Assembly (NCBI GenBank): GCA_965248845.1
Contig: CBDFKO010000002.1
Location: 968,063 to 1,032,062, forward strand
Direction of reading: 5' to 3'
Source of the DNA: Acidobacteriota bacterium
GTDB lineage: Bacteria > Acidobacteriota > UBA890 > WLXD01
DNA length: 64,000 nt
In this document: positions 10,960-58,127 of the stretch, piece after piece
Layout of the letters: each line of letters begins with the position of its first letter
Position numbering within the stretch: the first letter of the stretch is position 1
Translations under genes and position numbers: made by a program
The notes under the pieces: generated by a model
Database searches by the model: none
What the model was told of the DNA's origin: nothing
Seen by the model: the letters and a program-made list of their open reading frames with translations, nothing else

Positions 10960-10963
10960 GGCT

Positions 10964-11157
10964 AGCAGGCCTTCGTGAAGCGCTGATGGATCTCGCGAGT
11001 ACGTCCTGCGGGCGAGGGCAAGGAGCGCCGACGAGTCGATGCGACAACATCGTCGAGGCGGCGCGACACCGCCACCATCCCGCTCGAACCCTCCGGGCAG
11101 CCGCCTGTACTCCTTGGCGGCGCAACCCGACCCATCACACTTTCACCACGGCCTGCT
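10964..11157. repeat. MITE-like element, copy A (~194 bp), CTAG at both ends with imperfect ~25-bp terminal inverted repeats; its left end supplies the rbfA SD-like GAAGG
   Basis: Left end CTAGcaggccttcgtgaagcgctgatgg; right end ccatcacactttcaccacggcctgCTAG. Internal 40-bp block cgccaccatcccgctcgaaccctccgggcagccgcc is shared with the 18302-18469 element. Confidence 0.65.
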
Positions 11158-11198
11158 AGCGGCCTAACCAGACCCATGAGAGCCTCACCAAGATCCTG

Positions 11199-11480
11199 CT
11201 AGAGGTACTCTGTCTCGACGCGCGTCAGCAGCGCCTCGGCGCTGCGCTCGACCTCGTCGACCAGCTTTTCGAACAACCCCTCCAACCGTGGCCGGCTGTT
11301 GGAAACCGAGACCGCCGCGATACACGAGCGCTGCCACAGGTCCTGGTAGGCAACCTCTGCCACCGCCACATTGAAGCGTGACGTCAGGCGGTGCAGGAGT
11401 CTCTTGATCACGCTGCGCTTGTCCTTGAGGCTGCGACAAGCGGGCAAGTGCAACTCTAGGGTGCAGGCCCCGATAACCAT
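11199..11480 (-). CDS. DUF503 (YlxP-like) protein of the infB operon
   Basis: MVIGACTLELHLPACRSLKDKRSVIKRLL is typical of DUF503; lies between infB and rbfA. Start at ATG 11480; stop TAG lies inside a CTAG. Confidence 0.8.
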   Translation of the reverse strand: MVIGACTLELHLPACRSLKDKRSVIKRLLHRLTSRFNVAVAEVAYQDLWQRSCIAAVSVSNSRPRLEGLFEKLVDEVERSAEALLTRVETEYL

Positions 11481-11502
11481 CACACTTTCACTACGGCCTC
11501 CT
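11457..11502. repeat. Miniature copy (B, ~46 bp) of the MITE family spanning the infB stop and the DUF503 start
   Basis: CTAGggtgcaggcc..ccatcacactttcactacggcctcCTAG; 27 of 29 nt identical to the copy-A right end. It encodes the last residues (SLSRRP) and TAG stop of infB, and the ATG of DUF503. Confidence 0.6.
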
Positions 11503-15813: not shown

Positions 15814-16050
15814 TGATGTCGTTCTGGCCGGTGCTGGCACCGTCTTGCTCCTCTGGACAAAAAAAAGCGGGCACGAGGGCCCACTTCGCTCGCAGTACCC
15901 GAATTGCCGCAAACTCTACCAAGAACTCCGGTCCGCTTCAACGAGCCCGAGCTAGCAGGCCGTGGTAATTCTCTGACGGCGTTTGCGTCGCCGTACAGCT
16001 TCATTCAAGATCGCGGTCCGCCCCACAACCTGCCTCCTGCCGGAGTGCCT

Positions 16051-28341: not shown

Positions 28342-28384
28342 GAGGGTCTCCCAGGAGGCCGTGGTGAAAGTGCGATGGGTCTGG

Positions 28385-40372: not shown

Positions 40373-40534
40373 GAGCAGGCCATGGCGAGGTGTGATGCGT
40401 CGGGGCAAGTAGGTTCTACGGCCGAGGGCAAGGCTCGGCAGAGCCGGCGCAGGCACATCGTCGAGAGCGTGCCGCGAGGCATCTGCGCCCCTGGCGGCGT
40501 AACCAGCCCATCACACTTTCACCACGGCCTGGTA
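40373..40534. repeat. MITE-like element, copy C (~160 bp), in the divergent promoter region between the methyltransferase gene and the glycosyltransferase cluster
   Basis: Left end gagcaggccatggcgaggtgtgatgcg; right end cccatcacactttcaccacggcctggTAG; interior homologous to copy A (cggccgagggcaagg, acatcgtcgag). Confidence 0.6.
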
Positions 40535-43697: not shown

Positions 43698-44845
43698 TGC
43701 GGGTGCTGATCGACGCGCGCAAGCTCGGCGACTTCGGCATCGGCAGGTACATCCGAGGACTCGTGGGGGCCGCGGCCGCGCTACGACCGAGCTGGGAGTT
43801 CTGCGTGATGTCGCGACCCGAGAACAGCGACATCGCCACCTGGGCTGCCGGGAACGTACGCGTCGTTCTCGACTCCACCGGCGACTACTCGCTGGGCGAG
43901 ATGGTGGCCGGGAGTCGTTGCGCCCGGAGGATCGGAGCGGACCTGTTTCACGCGCCGCACTATGTCTTCCCGCGGCGCCTCCCCTGCCCCGGCATCGTGA
44001 CGATCCACGACTGCATCCACCTACGGTACCCTGGCCATCTGCCGCGTCCGCTCGGCCTGCTACCTCGCCGCCTCAGCCTGCTGTATGCGCAGCGCATGAT
44101 GCGCTTCGCAACGCGCACGGCGAGCCACGTGATCGCCGTGTCGGAAGCCACGCGAGCCGATATCGTCGATCGGCTTGGCGTCGGCGCCACCCGGGTCACG
44201 GCAATCCTCAACGGAGGTGGGACGGACGCGCTGGCGGCGCATGTAGCCGACCGGGCCGACTCCGACGACAGGAACGCGGCTCTGCCCGGTCTCTACGTGC
44301 TGTTCGTGGGCAACCCGAAGCCGCACAAGAACCTATCGGGTCTGCTGAGTGCCTTCGCCGGCCTGGCCGCGGACTATCCGGTTCTGCAGCTCGTGTTGGT
44401 CGGGCCTCTGGGGGCGCTCGCCGATGCGGTGGCAGCGCATCCGGCATCGACCGACCTGGCCGCTCGGATCCACAACTTGGGCCTCCTGTCCGAGCACGAG
44501 CTGCGTTGCGTCTACCGACAGGCGACACTGCAGTGCATGCCGTCGCTGTACGAGGGTTTCGGTCTGCCGGCGCTAGAGGCCATGGCTGCGGGGACGCCGG
44601 TAGTCGCATCCGATGCTGGTGGTCTGCCCGAGGTCGTCGGCGACGCCGGCGTCTTGGTCGAGCCGGGTAGTGTGGAGGCACTGACCGAGGCCCTGGCTCA
44701 CCTCCTGAGCGACGAGACCCGCCGCCGAGAGCTGGCCCGTCGGGGGCGGGAGCGCGCCTCCCGATTCAGCTGGCAACGCGCCGCCGAAGCAACCCTCGAC
44801 ATCTACGAGCTGGTCACCCTCCAGAAGGTCGCGGTGAAAATCTGA
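43697..44845 (+). CDS. Glycosyltransferase family 4
   Basis: YEGFGLPALEAMAAGTPVVAS; start overlaps the upstream stop. Confidence 0.85.
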   Translation: MRVLIDARKLGDFGIGRYIRGLVGAAAALRPSWEFCVMSRPENSDIATWAAGNVRVVLDSTGDYSLGEMVAGSRCARRIGADLFHAPHYVFPRRLPCPGIVTIHDCIHLRYPGHLPRPLGLLPRRLSLLYAQRMMRFATRTASHVIAVSEATRADIVDRLGVGATRVTAILNGGGTDALAAHVADRADSDDRNAALPGLYVLFVGNPKPHKNLSGLLSAFAGLAADYPVLQLVLVGPLGALADAVAAHPASTDLAARIHNLGLLSEHELRCVYRQATLQCMPSLYEGFGLPALEAMAAGTPVVASDAGGLPEVVGDAGVLVEPGSVEALTEALAHLLSDETRRRELARRGRERASRFSWQRAAEATLDIYELVTLQKVAVKI

Positions 44846-44861
44846 TGGGTCTGATCGGGCT

Positions 44862-47515: not shown

Positions 47516-48475
47516 ATGAGTGAACGCACAGAGACAGTGCTGATCACAGGTGGTGCCGGATTCATCGGCTCGCACCTCGCCGAGCATCTGCTGGGCCAGG
47601 GTGCCCGCGTGATCGTCATGGACAACTTGCTCACCGGCACCGCGAGCAACGTAGCGCGTTTCGCCAACCGCGACTACCTGTTCATCCAGCACGACGTCAC
47701 CAACTACATGTTCATCGATGAGCCGGTCGACTACGTCCTCCATTTCGCCTCGCCGGCGTCCCCGATCGACTATCTCCGCTACCCGATCCAGACGCTCAAG
47801 GTCGGTGCGCTGGGGACGCACAAGGCACTCGGCCTGGCGCGCCACAAGAACGCGGTCTTCATGTTGGCCTCGACCTCCGAGGTGTACGGCGACCCCCAGA
47901 TCAACCCGCAGCCCGAGTCCTACTGGGGGCACGTGAATCCGATCGGCCCGCGCGGCGTCTACGACGAGGCCAAGCGCTTTGGCGAGGCGATCACCATGGC
48001 CTACCACCGCAGCCACGGGCTGCGGACACGGATCGCGCGAATCTTCAACACCTACGGGCCTCGAATGCGGGTCGACGATGGACGGGCGGTGCCCAACTTC
48101 CTCATGCAGGCGCTTACGGCCGAGCCGATCACGGTGTACGGGGACGGCTCCCAGACGCGTTCCTTCTGCTACGTCGAGGACACGGTGCGTGGCCTCGTGG
48201 CACTGATGTGCTCGGCGGTCAGCGAACCGGTGAACGTCGGAAACCCGGCCGAGATCTCCATTCTGGACATCGCCCGGTTGATCGTCGACAAGACCGAGTC
48301 GAACAGCGAGATCGTGTTTCACGATCTTCCGGTCGACGATCCCAAGGTGCGACGCCCCGACATCGGCCGCGCGCACGCGGAGCTGGGTTGGGACCCGCAG
48401 ATCGACCTCGCCGAAGGTCTCGAGCTCACGATTCCCTGGTTCCGCCAGCAGCTCGCCAAGCGCCAGACCGCCTAG
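47516..48475 (+). CDS. UDP-glucuronate decarboxylase (UDP-xylose synthase), SDR family
   Basis: [10 protein letters not shown] Rossmann motif, catalytic YDEAKR and UXS-type conservation. Stop TAG lies within the CTAG that was targeted by IS5. Confidence 0.9.
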
Positions 48476-49780
48476 CAGGCTGCTGAAAAACGGCTCGAGC
48501 GCGCCATTTTGGGCTGGATCGTCTCGATCACGGTGAGTTAGCGGGGCGGCGAGTGCGAGTGCGAGGCTCTGGTTGCCGGCCGCGCCGGTATTTCTTGGGC
48601 GGTTAGTCCCGATATCGTCACGTCGCCCCCTGGAGGTTGCGCATTCTGACCAGGTTGAAGGCAGCGGCGGTGAAGGTGAACATCCAATCGACGCGTTCGG
48701 TGCCTCGGTGCCGCGTCTTGCGCATCAGCCCGACCGTCTTGGCCCATCCGAACATCTGCTCGACGAGCTTGCGTTTCCTTTGACTGACCTGGTAGCCGGG
48801 GTGGCGGGTTGTGCGCCGGTCGATGGCGCTGCGCCGATTGGTGTCGTTCTGTGCGACGTGCGGGGTGATGTTCCGATCTCGAAGCTTACGGACGCACTCG
48901 CGTGTGTCGTAGCCCTTGTCGGCCGCCAAGGTCACCCTGCGGTTACCGGAAATCTTGTCCGCCATTTGCACCGCCGCCTCTCGTTCCGCTGTCCCGGAAG
49001 CGATCGTTACGCATGCCTTGGTTGCTAACCCGTGGCGGTTGTCGATCATCAGGTGCCCCATGTAGCAGAGCTTCGACTCGGCTCCCCTACTTTTCTTGTA
49101 CAGGCGTGCGTCCGGATCGGTCCTGGAGGCGTGAGTATCGTTTGTGCGCCGTTGTTTGCGAAAATCGACGCTCGGGTTGCTGCCGCCCTCATCGGAGTCG
49201 CTCTGATCCTTCGGCTTGAAGCTCTTGTGTGAGGCCCACGCCTCGATCAGCGTACCGTCCACCGTGAAGTGCTCATCCGATAGCAGGCTGCGGCGCCGTG
49301 CCTCCGCCAGCACTTCCTGGAAGAACACCTCGGCGACCTCGCCTCCCAACACTCGATCCCGGTTCTTCGTGAACACCGTCGCATCCCACACCAGATCGTC
49401 CATGTTCAGGCCCACAAACCACCGGAACAGCAGGTTGTAGTCGAGCTGCTCCATCAGCATGCGCTCGGAGCGAATCGTGTACAGCACCTGCAGCAGCAGC
49501 GCCCGCAGCAGTTTCTCCGGCGGGATCGACGGTCGCCCCGTGTGCGAGTACAGCTTCTCGAACAGCGGCGACATCCGCCCCAGCACATCGTTGACGATCC
49601 TCAGCAGCGGCCGCAGCGGATGCTCTTTCGGTACTCGCTGCTCCGGAGATACGTAACTAAAGGCGGCCACCTGTCCCGCGTCCTCACCACGCATCTGCTC
49701 ACCTCGTTGATGCTTCGGTTTTTGCCGCGGGCTGCGTGGTTCAGAATCTACTCGAACAAGGGGAGTTTTTCAGCAGCCTG
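48476..49780. mobile_element. IS5-family insertion sequence (1305 bp) with 16-bp perfect terminal inverted repeats and a 4-bp CTAG target duplication
   Basis: Terminal repeats caggctgctgaaaaac / gtttttcagcagcctg; CTAG at 48472-48475 and 49781-49784. Confidence 0.85.
48618..49694 (-). CDS. IS5-family DDE transposase
   Basis: 358 aa with DDE_Tnp_1-like motifs (HPLRPLLRIVND..., DKGYD). Confidence 0.9.
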   Translation of the reverse strand: MRGEDAGQVAAFSYVSPEQRVPKEHPLRPLLRIVNDVLGRMSPLFEKLYSHTGRPSIPPEKLLRALLLQVLYTIRSERMLMEQLDYNLLFRWFVGLNMDDLVWDATVFTKNRDRVLGGEVAEVFFQEVLAEARRRSLLSDEHFTVDGTLIEAWASHKSFKPKDQSDSDEGGSNPSVDFRKQRRTNDTHASRTDPDARLYKKSRGAESKLCYMGHLMIDNRHGLATKACVTIASGTAEREAAVQMADKISGNRRVTLAADKGYDTRECVRKLRDRNITPHVAQNDTNRRSAIDRRTTRHPGYQVSQRKRKLVEQMFGWAKTVGLMRKTRHRGTERVDWMFTFTAAAFNLVRMRNLQGAT

Positions 49781-49804
49781 CTAGGAGACCGTGCTTCGGC
49801 CCCT

Positions 49805-50923
49805 TCAGCGCTCCAGAGCCCGCACGAGATCCTCCGGCCCCACGTCGATCGCCCAAGCGCCGTCGGCCGCCGCCATCTCGCCGAGTGCGAGCGGCAGCGC
49901 GCAGCGAGTCACGCCCTTGCGGGACTTCTTGTCGTGACGCGTTGCGGCCACGACGTCCTGTGCGGCCATCCCGGCCGGCAGGGCGGTGGGTAGGCCGGCA
50001 CGGGCGCAGAGCGACTCGATGCGCTCCGGCAGATCCGCAGGGGCGCGCAACAGGCGACAGGCCAGCCGGGCCTCAGCGACCATGCCGATGGCGACCGCCT
50101 TGCCGTGGCTGACGCTCAGGCCACTGGCCGCCTCGACCCCGTGGCCGAGCGTATGCCCGAAGTTCAGGATCGTCCGTCGCCCAGCCTCCCGCTCGTCATC
50201 GGCAACAACTCCAGCTTTCAGCTGCACACTGCGCTCGACGACGTTCTCGAGGGCGCCCGCGACCCTGCCCCGGCACGACTCGAGCAGGCCGTCCTCAAGA
50301 TCGACAAAGAGCTGCGCATCGAGGATGACGCCGTACTTGATGACCTCCGCCAAGCCGGCGCCGAGCTCGGAATCCGGCAGGCTGGCAAGCAGCTCCACGT
50401 CGGCAATCACGCCAGCCGGTTGGTGGAACGCGCCAACCAGGTTCTTGCCCGCCGCCGTGTCGATGCCCGTCTTGCCTCCCACCGAGCTGTCGACCATCGC
50501 CAGCAGGGTGCTCGGCAGCTGCACGAAAGGCAACCCGCGATAGAGTGTCGCCGCGACGAAGCCCGCCAGGTCACCGACCACGCCGCCGCCGAGCGCAACC
50601 ACGGCCGCATCGCGCCCGAAACCCGACTCGATGATCGCGTCCTGGAGTGCGCCTACCGTCTGGCGCGATTTCGCCGCCTCGCCGGCGGGAAAGGTAAACG
50701 TCCGGACCGGCGTGCCGGAGCGCGCGAAGCTCGCTTGCGTAACGGCGCTGTAGAGCTCGGCGACCGTCGTATCGCTGATCAACGCCCAGCCGGCCGGCTG
50801 CAGCCATGCAGCCGTATGCTCGGCGGCTCCTTCGAGCAGGCCGCTGCCAACTATGACCTCGTAGCTGCGATCCTCACCTGCGGGGAGCTCGACCCGTACG
50901 CGGGAGCCGGGCACCGTCCTCAA
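49805..50923 (-). CDS. aroB: 3-dehydroquinate synthase
   Basis: GGGVVGDLAGFVAATLYRGLPFVQLPSTLLAMVDSSVGGKTGI. Confidence 0.9.
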   Translation of the reverse strand: MRTVPGSRVRVELPAGEDRSYEVIVGSGLLEGAAEHTAAWLQPAGWALISDTTVAELYSAVTQASFARSGTPVRTFTFPAGEAAKSRQTVGALQDAIIESGFGRDAAVVALGGGVVGDLAGFVAATLYRGLPFVQLPSTLLAMVDSSVGGKTGIDTAAGKNLVGAFHQPAGVIADVELLASLPDSELGAGLAEVIKYGVILDAQLFVDLEDGLLESCRGRVAGALENVVERSVQLKAGVVADDEREAGRRTILNFGHTLGHGVEAASGLSVSHGKAVAIGMVAEARLACRLLRAPADLPERIESLCARAGLPTALPAGMAAQDVVAATRHDKKSRKGVTRCALPLALGEMAAADGAWAIDVGPEDLVRALER

Positions 50924-53134: not shown

Positions 53135-54516
53135 CGCGACACCTCGCTCAAGACCTCGGTCAAGCGATCGATTTGCTCGCGCGTGTGGACCTCGGTTACG
53201 CAGACCAGCAGCTGGTCGCCACGCTCCGTATCGAAGCGCTCGAGCGGCACTCCAGGGACGACCCCGCGCTCGGCGGCCGCGAGGCACACCTCGCTGGCCG
53301 AGCCGGGTACGCGGACGACGAACTCGTTGAAGTGCGGACCGCCATACAGCGGCTCGAATCCGGCCGCCGCCAGCGCCTCTCGCGCATAGCTGGCCTTGGC
53401 CAGGTTGTGGCTCGCAAGCTCGGCGACGCCTCCGCGCCCCAGCGTGCACATGTGAATACACGCAGCCAGCGCGCACAGCGCCTCGTTGGTGCAGATGTTG
53501 GAGGTCGCCTTGCCGCGGCGGATATGCTGCTCGCGCGTCGACAACGTCAGCACATAACCGCGCTTCCCGGCCGCGTCGACGGTCTCGCCCGCCAGCCGGC
53601 CCGGGAGGTTCCGCTTGTCACGGTCGCGGCACGCCACGAAGCCGACCAAGGGGCCCCCGTAGTTCATCCCGTTGCCGAAGCTCTGGAGCTCGCCCACGAC
53701 CAGGTCGGCGCCGGCATCGCCCGGCGGATAGGCAAGGCCGAGTGCCAGCGGCTCGGTGGTGGCCACTACGAACTTCGCAGCACTCTCGGCGATGAGCGCT
53801 CCGGCAGCGCGCAGATCCTCCATGACGCCGAAGAAGTTGGGTTGCTGCAGGACTACGGCGATCACCTCGTCGTCGACCGCCTCGAGCCGCGTGCGCCCGC
53901 TCTCATCGACCGGCAACGTCACGAACTCGATGTCGAGATGGGTGGCGTAGGTGTGGGTGACCTCGACGTAGCCCGGGTGCACACCCTCTGAAAGCAGCAC
54001 CCTGCCGCCTCGCCGCACCAGGCGGCGAGCCATCAGAACCGCCTCCGCCACCGAGCTGGCCCCATCGTAGACCGAGGCGTTGCACACCTCCATGCCGGTC
54101 AGCAGACAGACCAAGCTCTGGAACTCGAAGATGGCCTGCAGCGTTCCCTGCCCAACCTCCGCCTGGTAGGGCGTGTAGGCGGTGAGGAACTCTTGGCGCT
54201 GGATCAGCGCGTCGACATGGGACGGGACGAAGTGCGGATTGCAGCCCGCCCCCAGGAAGCTGAGGGCGCCCTGCCCCGGAGCAGTACGCGCCGCCAGCGA
54301 TTCCATCAGCGACACCAACTCCTGTTCGGCCATGGTGCACTCGACGGCCAACTCGCCCGTGAAGCGGACGGACGCCGGGATGGATTCGAACAGCTGGTCG
54401 ATGTGGTCGACGCCGACCGTCCGCATCATCGCGTCTCGATCGCCATGGCCCTGCGACAGCAGCCGGCCCGACCCACGGGCGTCGTTGCCCCGTGACTGGC
54501 TCGCATCGATCGTCAC
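53131..54516 (-). CDS. gcvPA: Glycine dehydrogenase (decarboxylating) subunit 1
   Basis: GcvP N-terminal half; MLAAIG-like N-terminus. Confidence 0.9.
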   Translation of the reverse strand: MTIDASQSRGNDARGSGRLLSQGHGDRDAMMRTVGVDHIDQLFESIPASVRFTGELAVECTMAEQELVSLMESLAARTAPGQGALSFLGAGCNPHFVPSHVDALIQRQEFLTAYTPYQAEVGQGTLQAIFEFQSLVCLLTGMEVCNASVYDGASSVAEAVLMARRLVRRGGRVLLSEGVHPGYVEVTHTYATHLDIEFVTLPVDESGRTRLEAVDDEVIAVVLQQPNFFGVMEDLRAAGALIAESAAKFVVATTEPLALGLAYPPGDAGADLVVGELQSFGNGMNYGGPLVGFVACRDRDKRNLPGRLAGETVDAAGKRGYVLTLSTREQHIRRGKATSNICTNEALCALAACIHMCTLGRGGVAELASHNLAKASYAREALAAAGFEPLYGGPHFNEFVVRVPGSASEVCLAAAERGVVPGVPLERFDTERGDQLLVCVTEVHTREQIDRLTEVLSEVSR

Positions 54517-54523
54517 TGCGATC

Positions 54524-54907
54524 TCACTCCTCGATGTGTGAGCGGTAGGCGTCGGCGCTCATCAACGCGGCCACCTCGGCAGCGTCGTCCATCTTGATGC
54601 GCACCATCCAGCCGGCCCCGTGTGGATCGTCGTTGACGGTCTCGGGCGCATCTACGAGCTCCTCGTTGACGACAACGATCTCGCCGGCGACCGGCGCGTA
54701 CAGGTCGGAGACCGCCTTGACGGACTCGATCGTCCCGAAAGGGTCTCCCCTGCCAAAGCGGCTCCCGGGCTCGGGGAGCTCGACAAAAACTACGTCGCCG
54801 AGCTCGTCCTGGGCGTGGTGCGTGATCCCTACCGTGCACACCTCGCCGTCGACGGAGATCCACTCGTGCTCATTGGAATAGACGTAACTGTCGGGGTAGT
54901 CGGCCAT
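54524..54907 (-). CDS. gcvH: Glycine cleavage system H protein
   Basis: Lipoyl-lysine motif ESVKAVSDLYAP; start at ATG 54907. Confidence 0.9.
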   Translation of the reverse strand: MADYPDSYVYSNEHEWISVDGEVCTVGITHHAQDELGDVVFVELPEPGSRFGRGDPFGTIESVKAVSDLYAPVAGEIVVVNEELVDAPETVNDDPHGAGWMVRIKMDDAAEVAALMSADAYRSHIEE

Positions 54908-54966: not shown

Positions 54967-56064
<1,098 letters not shown>

Positions 56065-56137
56065 GGGACCTCCCGCGGGACGGAGCAGGAATGGGCGAAC
56101 AGACGGGCGTCGGGCCGACGCGACGCCTCAAGTTACC

Positions 56138-56174
56138 ATAGCAGGCTGTGGTGCAAGTGTGATGGGCCTGGTAG
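56138..56174. repeat. Micro copy (~37 bp) of the MITE family in the gcvT leader
   Basis: aTAGcaggctgtggtgcaagtgtgatgggcctggTAG, i.e. left terminal motif plus the right tip. Confidence 0.5.
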
Positions 56175-56231
56175 TTCTGCCAACGGCGCCTCACGGCGCC
56201 TTCCACCGCGCGGAAGAGGCCGCAGAAAAGC

Positions 56232-56870
56232 CTACCGGACCCGCTCCCAGCCGCTGGTAGCGGCGCGGAATCGCCACACGGCGACACGGCCGGTCGCCCC
56301 ATACAAGCGCACCGCCGCAGCGTCCCCGTAAGCGTTGTGGAGATAGACCGTACCGCTACTCGTCGACCCTTCAGGGGCAACGCTCAGCCGATCGAGACGG
56401 CCGAACGCGACGCCATCCGCGGGCCGGGCGCCGGCCAGCGACGGCACCCCGGCCGGTAGACCCGCCACGATCCCGGGAAAGTCGCGTTCGAGACGAAACA
56501 CTCGACCCGTCGGCCTATCGATGTTCCGACGCAGGTCGTCCGATCGGAGGCCGTCCCCATCGCCATCCTCGAGCTCGTGCCATTCCAGACCGTCCACCGT
56601 GTAGAACTGAAGGCCGAAGTGCCGGCCGTGGGCGCTCGCTCTCGCTTGCAAGACGGCGACCTGCGTCGCAATCGCGCCGCAGGCCGACAGGAGCTGTTGG
56701 CTCTGGCGCCATCGGACCCAGGCGGGAGCAGCCGTCTGCACGAGTAGCCCTACGATCGCGAGGCACACGGTCAACTCGAGCAGTGAGACGCCCGCTGCCC
56801 GGAAGGCTACGCCGCCAGCGGCGCGTCCTTGACGGTGGCACCGTAACCAGACCCACCACACTTTCACCAC
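56232..56870 (-). CDS. Orphan prepilin-type N-terminal cleavage/methylation domain protein (GspH/FimT-like minor pseudopilin); 5' end lies within a MITE copy
   Basis: AAG|VSLLELTVCLAIVGLL prepilin motif with Glu at +5; GspH-like C-terminus. No other T2SS/T4P genes nearby. The GTG start falls inside the repeat caccacactttcacc. Confidence 0.55.
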   Translation of the reverse strand: MVKVWWVWLRCHRQGRAAGGVAFRAAGVSLLELTVCLAIVGLLVQTAAPAWVRWRQSQQLLSACGAIATQVAVLQARASAHGRHFGLQFYTVDGLEWHELEDGDGDGLRSDDLRRNIDRPTGRVFRLERDFPGIVAGLPAGVPSLAGARPADGVAFGRLDRLSVAPEGSTSSGTVYLHNAYGDAAAVRLYGATGRVAVWRFRAATSGWERVR

Positions 56871-56879
56871 GGTCTCCTA
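56850..56879. repeat. MITE-family right-end copy (D) immediately left of IS630 copy 2
   Basis: gacccaccacactttcaccacggtctccTA. Confidence 0.6.
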
Positions 56880-58080
56880 GTCTCCTGTAACAGTGGTTCG
56901 CAGCATAAGTCATGAGGCGTGTTGGTCGAGAGTGCGCTGTGCGAACCGGGCGATGGGAGCCAGGATCTCGTCGGCACTCTTGCACCACACGAACGGCTCG
57001 GGGGTCTCGTTGTGCGCATCGATGAACTCCCAGATAGCTGCCACCAGCGCTGCGACACTGCAATGAGATCCGCGGCGGATCTGCTTGTTGGTCAGCTCGG
57101 CGAACCAGCGCTCGACCTGGTTGAGCCACGAGGCATAGGTAGGGGTGAAGTGCAGGTGGAAGCGTGGCCGTTTGGCCAGCCAGGTGTGGATCATCGGGCT
57201 CTTGTGGGTGCCGTAGTTGTCCAGGACCAGATGCACCTGCAGTTGGGCAGGCACCTGCTCATCGATCATGTCCAGGAACTTGCGGAACTCCACCGAGCGA
57301 TGCCGGCGGTGAGTCTGAGCCAGAACGGTTCCCGTCTTGATGTCCAAGGCGGCGAACAACGATGTCGTTCCATGGCGTTGGTAGTCATGCGTGCGCCGCT
57401 CCATCTGGCCGGGCCGCATGGGTAGCAACGGCTGTGTCCGATCCAGTGCCTGGATCTGGCTCTTTTCGTCCACGCACAGCACCACCGCGTGCTCGGGCGG
57501 GTTGACATACAACCCGACGACGTCGCGCACCTTGTCCACCAGTAACGGGTCGGGCGAGAGCTTGAACGTCTCGGTGCGGTGTGGCTTGAGACCAAAGGCA
57601 CGCCAGATCCGGCTGATTGTGGCGTGGCTCAAGCCGGTCGCCTTGGCCATCGACCGGGTGGACCAGTGGGTGGCCCCACGCGGGGTACTCTCCAAGGTGC
57701 GGATGATCACCTGTTCGACCTGGGCGTCCGTGATCTTGCGCGGCGCTCCGGGTCGCGGTTCGTCGTACAGGCCATCGAGACGATCCGACACGAAGCGTGC
57801 CCGCCATTTGCCCACGGTGCTCGGTGACAGCTGCAAGCGCTTGGCCACGGCCTTGTTGTCGTGTCCCTGCGCGCAGGCCAGGACGATGCGCGCGCGGCGT
57901 GCCGGGGCGGGGGCGGTGCGGGATCGATGCGCCAACGAGTTCAGGTGTGCCTCCTCCTGTGGCGTCAGCGTTAAGGGAGCCTTGGGTCGACCGGTGCGCA
58001 TGCGACAATCTCCTGTGCTCAGCTACAGGTTCAACATATGCACACTATAACTTATATCAGTTATTTCTGATACAGGAGAC
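56880..58080. mobile_element. IS630-family insertion sequence (copy 2, 1201 bp) inserted at the TA of a CTAG between two MITE arms
   Basis: TA duplications at 56878-56879 and 58081-58082. Terminal inverted repeat gtctcctgtaacag / gtctcctgtatcag with AT-rich subterminal sequence. Confidence 0.85.
56910..58001 (-). CDS. IS630-family DDE transposase (full length, N-terminal HTH plus DDE core)
   Basis: 363 aa; aligns with the copy-1 transposase over its whole length. Confidence 0.9.
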
Positions 58081-58127
58081 TAGCGGCCCGTGGTGAAAGT
58101 GTGATTAAGCGGCCCGCCGCTTGGTAG
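58081..58127. repeat. MITE-family left-end/micro copy (E) immediately right of IS630 copy 2
   Basis: TAgcggcccgtggtgaaagtgtgatt...cttggTAG. Together with D it forms a 16-bp perfect palindrome, cacactttcaccacgg / ccgtggtgaaagtgtg, centred on the TA that was duplicated. Confidence 0.6.

Follow-up and report, generated by a model that had tools for sequence, protein, structure and literature searches.

The window analyzed here, a stretch of 64,000 nucleotides from a GC-rich Acidobacteriota-like bacterium, contains a complete insertion sequence (IS) between two convergent genes, one coding for a predicted UDP-glucuronate decarboxylase (UDP-xylose synthase, UXS) and the other, aroB, for 3-dehydroquinate synthase (Table 1). 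Genes for GT4 glycosyltransferases and a Bac_transf priming transferase lie to the left of UXS. Beyond aroB, on the right side, follow a racemase gene and then gcvPB, gcvH and gcvT; the gap itself and the gene order of relatives suggest that gcvPA occupies an unmodelled gap at 53476-54524. This arrangement agrees with an earlier note on this DNA, which described the element as separating a glycan cluster from aroB and the gcv operon. A pseudopilin-like gene with a weak GspH-type N-terminus (56232-56870, minus strand) is located upstream of gcvT. Searches with Rfam at gathering thresholds returned no family anywhere in the window, including a glycine riboswitch upstream of the gcvT-H-P operon (56064-56232), and a tRNA scan of the window found none.

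The product of the UXS gene matches the Pfam families Epimerase and GDP_Man_Dehyd, and its residues 5-314 align with the structures of human UXS1 (4gll/2b69) with an E-value of 4e-105 and 355 bits, versus 9e-42 for the next, non-UXS family. A GxxGxxG motif (GGAGFIG) starts at residue 12 and the catalytic YxxxK motif (YDEAK) at residue 149. None of the NCBIfam models reached its cut-off with this protein; homologues at 66-70% identity are named 'UDP-glucuronic acid decarboxylase family protein'. The full reading frame, the match to human UXS1 and the length of 319 residues as compared to 321-327 in relatives confirm that the UXS coding sequence is intact, as had been claimed. The assignment of aroB is based on TIGR01357 (347 bits, cut-off 305) and on Pfam DHQ_synthase.

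Table 1. Features of the UXS-aroB junction and other mobile or repeated DNA in the window.
Feature	Position	Strand	Basis
UDP-glucuronate decarboxylase (UDP-xylose synthase, UXS), 319 aa, intact	47516..48475	+	ORF, Pfam, structure match
CTAG, predicted left 4-bp target-site duplication, includes UXS stop	48472..48475	.	direct reading, repeat finder
Complete IS5-family insertion sequence, 1305 bp	48476..49780	-	repeat finder, IR search, composition
IRR, terminal inverted repeat distal to transposase start, CAGGCTGCTGAAAAAC	48476..48491	.	repeat finder, IR search
Transposase gene, 358 aa, DUF772 + DDE_Tnp_1	48618..49694	-	six-frame ORF list, Pfam, NCBIfam, alignment
IRL, terminal inverted repeat beside transposase start	49765..49780	.	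repeat finder, IR search
CTAG, predicted right 4-bp target-site duplication	49781..49784	.	direct reading, repeat finder
Native 20-bp spacer, UXS stop to aroB stop before insertion	49785..49804	.	reading of sequence
aroB, 3-dehydroquinate synthase	49805..50923	-	TIGR01357, Pfam DHQ_synthase
Second IS, IS630 family (transposase 56910-58001)	56880-58080	-	NF033545, 292 bits vs cut-off 100
Repeat of about 40 nt, minus-strand matches	11132-11155, 11477-11500, 40508-40531, 56853-56876	-	window scan
Repeat of about 40 nt, plus-strand matches	15952-15979, 28355-28378, 44825-44848 (weak), 56142-56165, 58084-58107; also 10962-10989	+	window scan

The one perfect inverted pair reported by the repeat finder, in accord with direct reading, has arms at 48471-48491 and 49765-49785 that are 100% complementary. 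Each 21-nt arm consists of a 16-bp terminal inverted repeat (IR, CAGGCTGCTGAAAAAC, 16/16 bp perfect), the tetranucleotide CTAG and one chance C/G pair as the outermost position. No third site resembles the 16-mer in the 64-kb window when up to three mismatches are allowed (0.23 chance matches expected). The element has a GC content of 61.8%, as compared to 66.8% for the window. A length of 1305 bp, perfect 16-bp terminal repeats and a CTAG on both sides had been described before, and all of these proved exact, as did the placement of the UXS stop codon (TAG, 48473-48475) inside the left CTAG. Short terminal IRs, an element of about 1-1.5 kb and a single transposase ORF make up the IS5-type layout, which is found here with repeats of 16/16 bp, 1305 bp and 358 residues.

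According to the six-frame ORF list, the transposase gene is the only long ORF within the IS, and a Shine-Dalgarno-like sequence (GAGGTG) stands 5 nt upstream of its ATG. The protein scores 284.1 bits on the NCBIfam model NF033581, 'IS5 family transposase' (cut-off 140), over profile positions 10-285 of 285, which substantiates the earlier assignment to the IS5 family. InsH of E. coli IS5 reaches 366 bits with this model; the InsH query sequence was validated by 100% identity to genes annotated as 'IS5-like element IS5 family transposase'. On the remaining IS5 sub-models of NCBIfam the window transposase stays below the cut-off. The second-best transposase model, that of the IS1182 family, has the N-terminal DUF772 region in common with the window protein. 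Membership in this family was rejected, as NF033551 gives 198 bits with a cut-off of 270, and the match falls into three separate stretches, the best one spanning only profile positions 4-160 of 488. The residues D146 (VDGT), D259 (ADKGY), E312 and K319 (RKLVEQMFGWAK, pattern R-x3-E-x6-K) form the catalytic signature of the window transposase and are invariant in an alignment of five sequences, namely the window protein, InsH, ISAzs10 and two other homologues.

The likeness to E. coli IS5 therefore includes the NF033581 model, a single-ORF DDE transposase with DUF772 and DDE_Tnp_1 domains, and the aligned D/D/E and R-x3-E-x6-K residues, where VDGT and ADKGY of the window protein align with VDAT and ADAGY of InsH. 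Terminal repeats of 16 bp would be a further common trait. Both elements are associated with a 4-bp duplication of 5'-YTAR-3'; for E. coli IS5 this rule was derived from 220 reconstructed duplications (PMC5009759), and CTAG has been quoted as an IS5 repeat (PMC10379815). On the other hand, InsH is only 23% identical to the window transposase and is shorter (326 versus 358 residues), and the two hosts differ. The closest ISfinder-derived name in the searched collections is the ISAzs10 family, with 61% amino acid identity over the full 358 residues of the window transposase. The ISAzs10 copy on plasmid pAB510f of Azospirillum sp. B510 (NC_013860.1) measures about 1307 bp, has a related IR (CAGGCCGCGGAAAAAGG) and is flanked by TTAG on both sides, a 4-bp YTAR duplication. 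The window element differs from it at the nucleotide level, with 62% identity. Such a value lies far below the level at which ISfinder usually treats two elements as the same IS, and under these criteria the window element would call for a new name. Judged by its sequence, the element is probably a previously unnamed IS in the IS5-family group of E. coli IS5 and ISAzs10.

This IS is strongly expanded in the source genome, as indicated by many near-identical transposases on two contigs. At least 41 listed transposase representatives with at least 92% identity are recorded on contigs of 4,360,038 bp or 735,484 bp, and one of these representatives stands for a cluster of 59 members. The larger contig also encodes proteins that are 100% identical to the UXS and AccA proteins of the window. 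The source genome would seem to comprise an Acidobacteriota-like chromosome of 4.36 Mb and the contig of 0.74 Mb; among named organisms, the closest AccA proteins (70-73% identity) are those of Acidobacteriota. For a closer comparison we assembled 16 copies, consisting of the window copy and 15 full copies retrieved from ENA metagenome contigs (designated by L numbers). All are 1303-1305 bp long and have the same 16-bp IRs. The window copy is 99.2% identical to the copy in L081 and 90.6-92.6% identical to the 14 others, so that two IS subtypes can be distinguished, one represented by the window copy and L081 and a second about 92% identical to the window copy. The presence of many near-identical copies at different sites points indirectly to transposition of the element.

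In 12 of the 16 copies the flanking tetranucleotides are equal on both sides (CTAG in ten, CTAA in one, TTAG in one), and 31 of all 32 flanks match YTAR. The other four copies have unequal flanks: CTAG/CTAC in L094, CTAG/TTAA in L097, TTAA/CTAA in L099 and CTAG/TTAG in L102. These cases count against a model of a single clean duplication and need an extra explanation; they suggest recombination between copies with rearrangement, mutation, or chimeric metagenome assembly.

Several of the sampled copies are nested in or beside other mobile DNA (L089 1960-4194, L090 2180-2425, L087 4031-6077). One splits an IS481/IS3-like transposase gene in L089 and another breaks a phage terminase gene in L090, while IS3-type and Mutator-type transposase genes adjoin some copies (L087, L081, L090). 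The window itself carries a second IS, which belongs to the IS630 family and is likewise inserted in a CTAG. This element differs from the IS5-family copy by its transposase family (NF033545), by its IRs of about 14 bp (GTCTCCTGTAACAG) and by the duplication of only the central TA within the CTAG. It is centred in a near-palindromic pair of a repeat of about 40 nt, forming an inverted repeat of 37 nt (89%) across the junctions.

The 40-nt repeat, CTAG-(C/G)AGGCCGTGGTGAAAGTGTGATGG-GTCTGGTTACGC, occurs about nine times in the 64 kb, mostly in intergenic positions and mostly preceded by CTAG. Its start resembles the terminal repeat of the IS5 group (compare the ISAzs10 IR), and the string CTAGCAGGCY has six matches in the window versus 0.18 expected. 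An inverted pair bounds a MITE-like segment of 198 bp (10962-11159) situated between rbfA and a DUF503 gene; in one place the repeat covers both the end of infB, with its stop codon, and the start of the DUF503 gene. In the other loci retrieved, about 138 kb in all, a single weak match is present. It may represent a MITE or solo IS ends, or else a promoter or leader motif. A 5-kb transposon bounded by CTAGCAGGCC at 15952 and 21210 was considered and rejected, as housekeeping genes (PALP enzyme, TatC, RecJ, AccA) lie between these positions.

We then asked how the position of the IS5-family copy on a stop codon may be understood. In four of the 16 copies the insertion point coincides exactly with the stop codon of a called gene. 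The genes concerned are UXS in the window, a ferredoxin gene in L081, a gene for a 322-aa protein in L100 and, in L101, a DUF5681 gene. As a background we used the 70 YTAR sites of the window, which a rough GC3-based gene model (41 genes) divides into 4 on stop codons, 32 inside genes and 34 in intergenic DNA; the share of YTAR sites that fall on stop codons is thus about 6% overall and about 11% when only non-genic sites are counted. CTAG itself is found 42 times in the window, under half of the 91 occurrences expected from a Markov model. As side observations, TTAA occurs only four times in the 64 kb, and in the rough 41-gene model 24 genes end in TGA, 17 in TAG and none in TAA.

These counts bear on the idea that the element actively favours gene ends, using stop codons as a 'safe haven' beyond what YTAR recognition and selection would provide. 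The excess of 4/16 copies over 4/70 YTAR sites (binomial p = 0.011) speaks for such a preference, but against the non-genic YTAR sites alone the difference is not significant (p = 0.08). Furthermore, the gene model missed at least one more CTAG stop, that of the DUF503 gene at 11199, so that the true background share of YTAR sites on stops is higher. Other copies do break genes, as seen for the IS481-like transposase gene (L089), the terminase gene (L090) and ORFs that run into the IS (L092, L102), and 16 copies make a small sample. We therefore regard an active preference for gene ends as unlikely, although it survives better than any other alternative. Each YTAR site reads TAA or TAG on both strands, and this triplet is rebuilt by the duplication; a coding sequence therefore remains untouched whenever its stop codon is preceded by C or T. 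The simplest reading of the stop-codon position is YTAR target choice combined with the loss of gene-disrupting copies, and no dedicated preference is needed.

The age of the insertion was addressed by comparison with two related lineages, in which UXS faces aroB with no IS between them. In the first (L082-L086, including GCA_966190425.1) UXS is 79% identical to the window protein and the UXS-aroB spacer measures 75 bp; in the second (L103) UXS is 76% identical and the two genes overlap by 11 bp. Both lineages have the order glycosyltransferases, Bac_transf, UXS, and then convergent aroB, racemase, gcvPB and gcvPA; gcvH and gcvT are also present at the locus in the first. Since this gene order is kept without the IS, the insertion is derived in the lineage of the window. 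The earlier note had proposed a search for the empty site in related genomes as a check, and by this comparison the element is not ancestral. By the same gene orders, the insertion is not a mark of the edge of an acquired island. A UXS search of genome contigs returned, among the matches listed, relatives at 67% identity or less. From the window we predicted the uninterrupted UXS-aroB junction with a single CTAG as GCCAGACCGCCTAGGAGACCGTGC. Scans of JGI metagenomes gave no match to either this reconstructed empty junction or the filled one; the host organism is absent from this collection, and these null scans therefore say nothing on polymorphism.

Derived status also bears on the idea that the element is old, fixed and domesticated, for example by providing UXS or aroB with a terminator or a regulatory signal. 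The one feature in its favour lies inside the IS (48574-48590), where the UXS strand contains a terminator-like hairpin and a T-run; transcripts reading through UXS would end there, about 100 nt beyond its stop codon. This hairpin is weak and not above chance: a consensus scan found two terminator-like sites versus 1.5 expected from shuffled sequences, both inside the IS and none in the spacer. Predicted RNA folds are no better than those of shuffles, with z = +1.4 for the IRR region, z = +1.0 for the region of IRL and the aroB end, and z = +0.8 for the reconstructed empty site. Together with the two lineages that lack the element, the 99.2% identity to another copy, the intact ORF, the perfect IRs and the intact duplication, these data make domestication very improbable, and the copy is structurally intact and probably recently inserted. 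The same scans led us to drop the idea of a displaced or imported terminator. The proposal that the IS had replaced the terminator or 3' UTR of UXS is consequently unsupported in its terminator part, given that the native spacer is only 20 bp long and contains no terminator-like site, and that the reconstructed site forms no convincing hairpin (by the fold just cited).

With regard to transcription, the transposase gene has the orientation of aroB, and the IS begins 24 nt downstream of the aroB stop (IS end 49780, aroB 49805). Transcripts of the gcv-aroB operon that fail to terminate could extend through the transposase gene and then run antisense into UXS. Transcripts reading through UXS would conversely enter the IS antisense to the transposase gene and meet the weak hairpin described above.

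An assembly artefact, by which a repeat was misplaced into the UXS-aroB junction, is just as improbable as domestication. An IS so highly repeated in the source genome invites such an error, and the four metagenomic copies with mismatched flanks could be chimeras, but deletion of the IS plus one CTAG restores a UXS stop that faces the aroB stop, as in the relatives, and the CTAG tetranucleotides at the two junctions match.

Because CTAG is palindromic, the window site alone cannot separate a duplicated target from an element end. Two sister copies carry non-palindromic direct duplications (CTAA/CTAA in L100, TTAG/TTAG in L101), and an uninterrupted paralogous terminase gene in L089 has a single CTAG where the gene in L090 holds the IS. 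From these observations it follows that the four base pairs are a true target duplication, so that the CTAG duplications described in the earlier note hold up; for the UXS site itself, the duplication would follow from the sister copies. In another reading there is no target duplication, and the element measures 1313 bp, with the CTAGs as the outer ends of IRs of 20 bp. This reading looks the same at the palindromic window site and accords with the perfect inverted repeat of 21 nt, but the sister-copy flanks, the TTAG/TTAG flanks of ISAzs10 and the single CTAG of the paralogous site make it the least credible alternative of all.

We conclude, with a probability of roughly 0.9, that the window contains an intact and probably recent IS5-family copy that duplicated its YTAR target and is nearly neutral at the UXS-aroB gap. 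The transposition chemistry, the current activity of the element and the near-neutrality of this copy are what we infer. In this scheme the DDE transposase would recognize the 16-bp terminal repeats and excise the element, which would be joined into a 5'-YTAR-3' target by staggered cuts 4 bp apart, and repair of the stagger would duplicate these 4 bp. The target used here would have been the CTAG composed of the third position of the last sense codon and the UXS TAG stop, next to the 20-bp gap between the convergent UXS and aroB genes. Regeneration of CTAG on both sides would leave the UXS coding sequence and stop unchanged and aroB untouched, and the copy would therefore be nearly neutral and would have persisted.

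For the study of IS5-type elements, this case implies that YTAR targeting can be expected to place insertions 'exactly at the stop codon', and that these should not be taken for a regulatory adaptation. A more speculative extension, to which we give little credence, starts from the GC-rich genome, in which YTAR is rare and a good share of its occurrences are TAG or TAA stops: the IS lineage might use stop codons as scar-free landing pads, with a true enrichment at gene ends that exceeds what the supply of target motifs alone would give. If true, this would help to explain how the element could reach a copy number in the dozens at low cost within a genome of 5 Mb. The element described here is a probably new, structurally intact member of the IS5 family, multiplied in the genome of an Acidobacteriota-like host. 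It merits a name and masking in annotation, and it accounts for one interruption of a gene order that is otherwise conserved. For studies of genome plasticity in uncultured Acidobacteriota, the IS load of this genome may be of interest, as dozens of copies of two subtypes are accompanied by IS630, IS481-like and Mutator-type elements in their vicinity.
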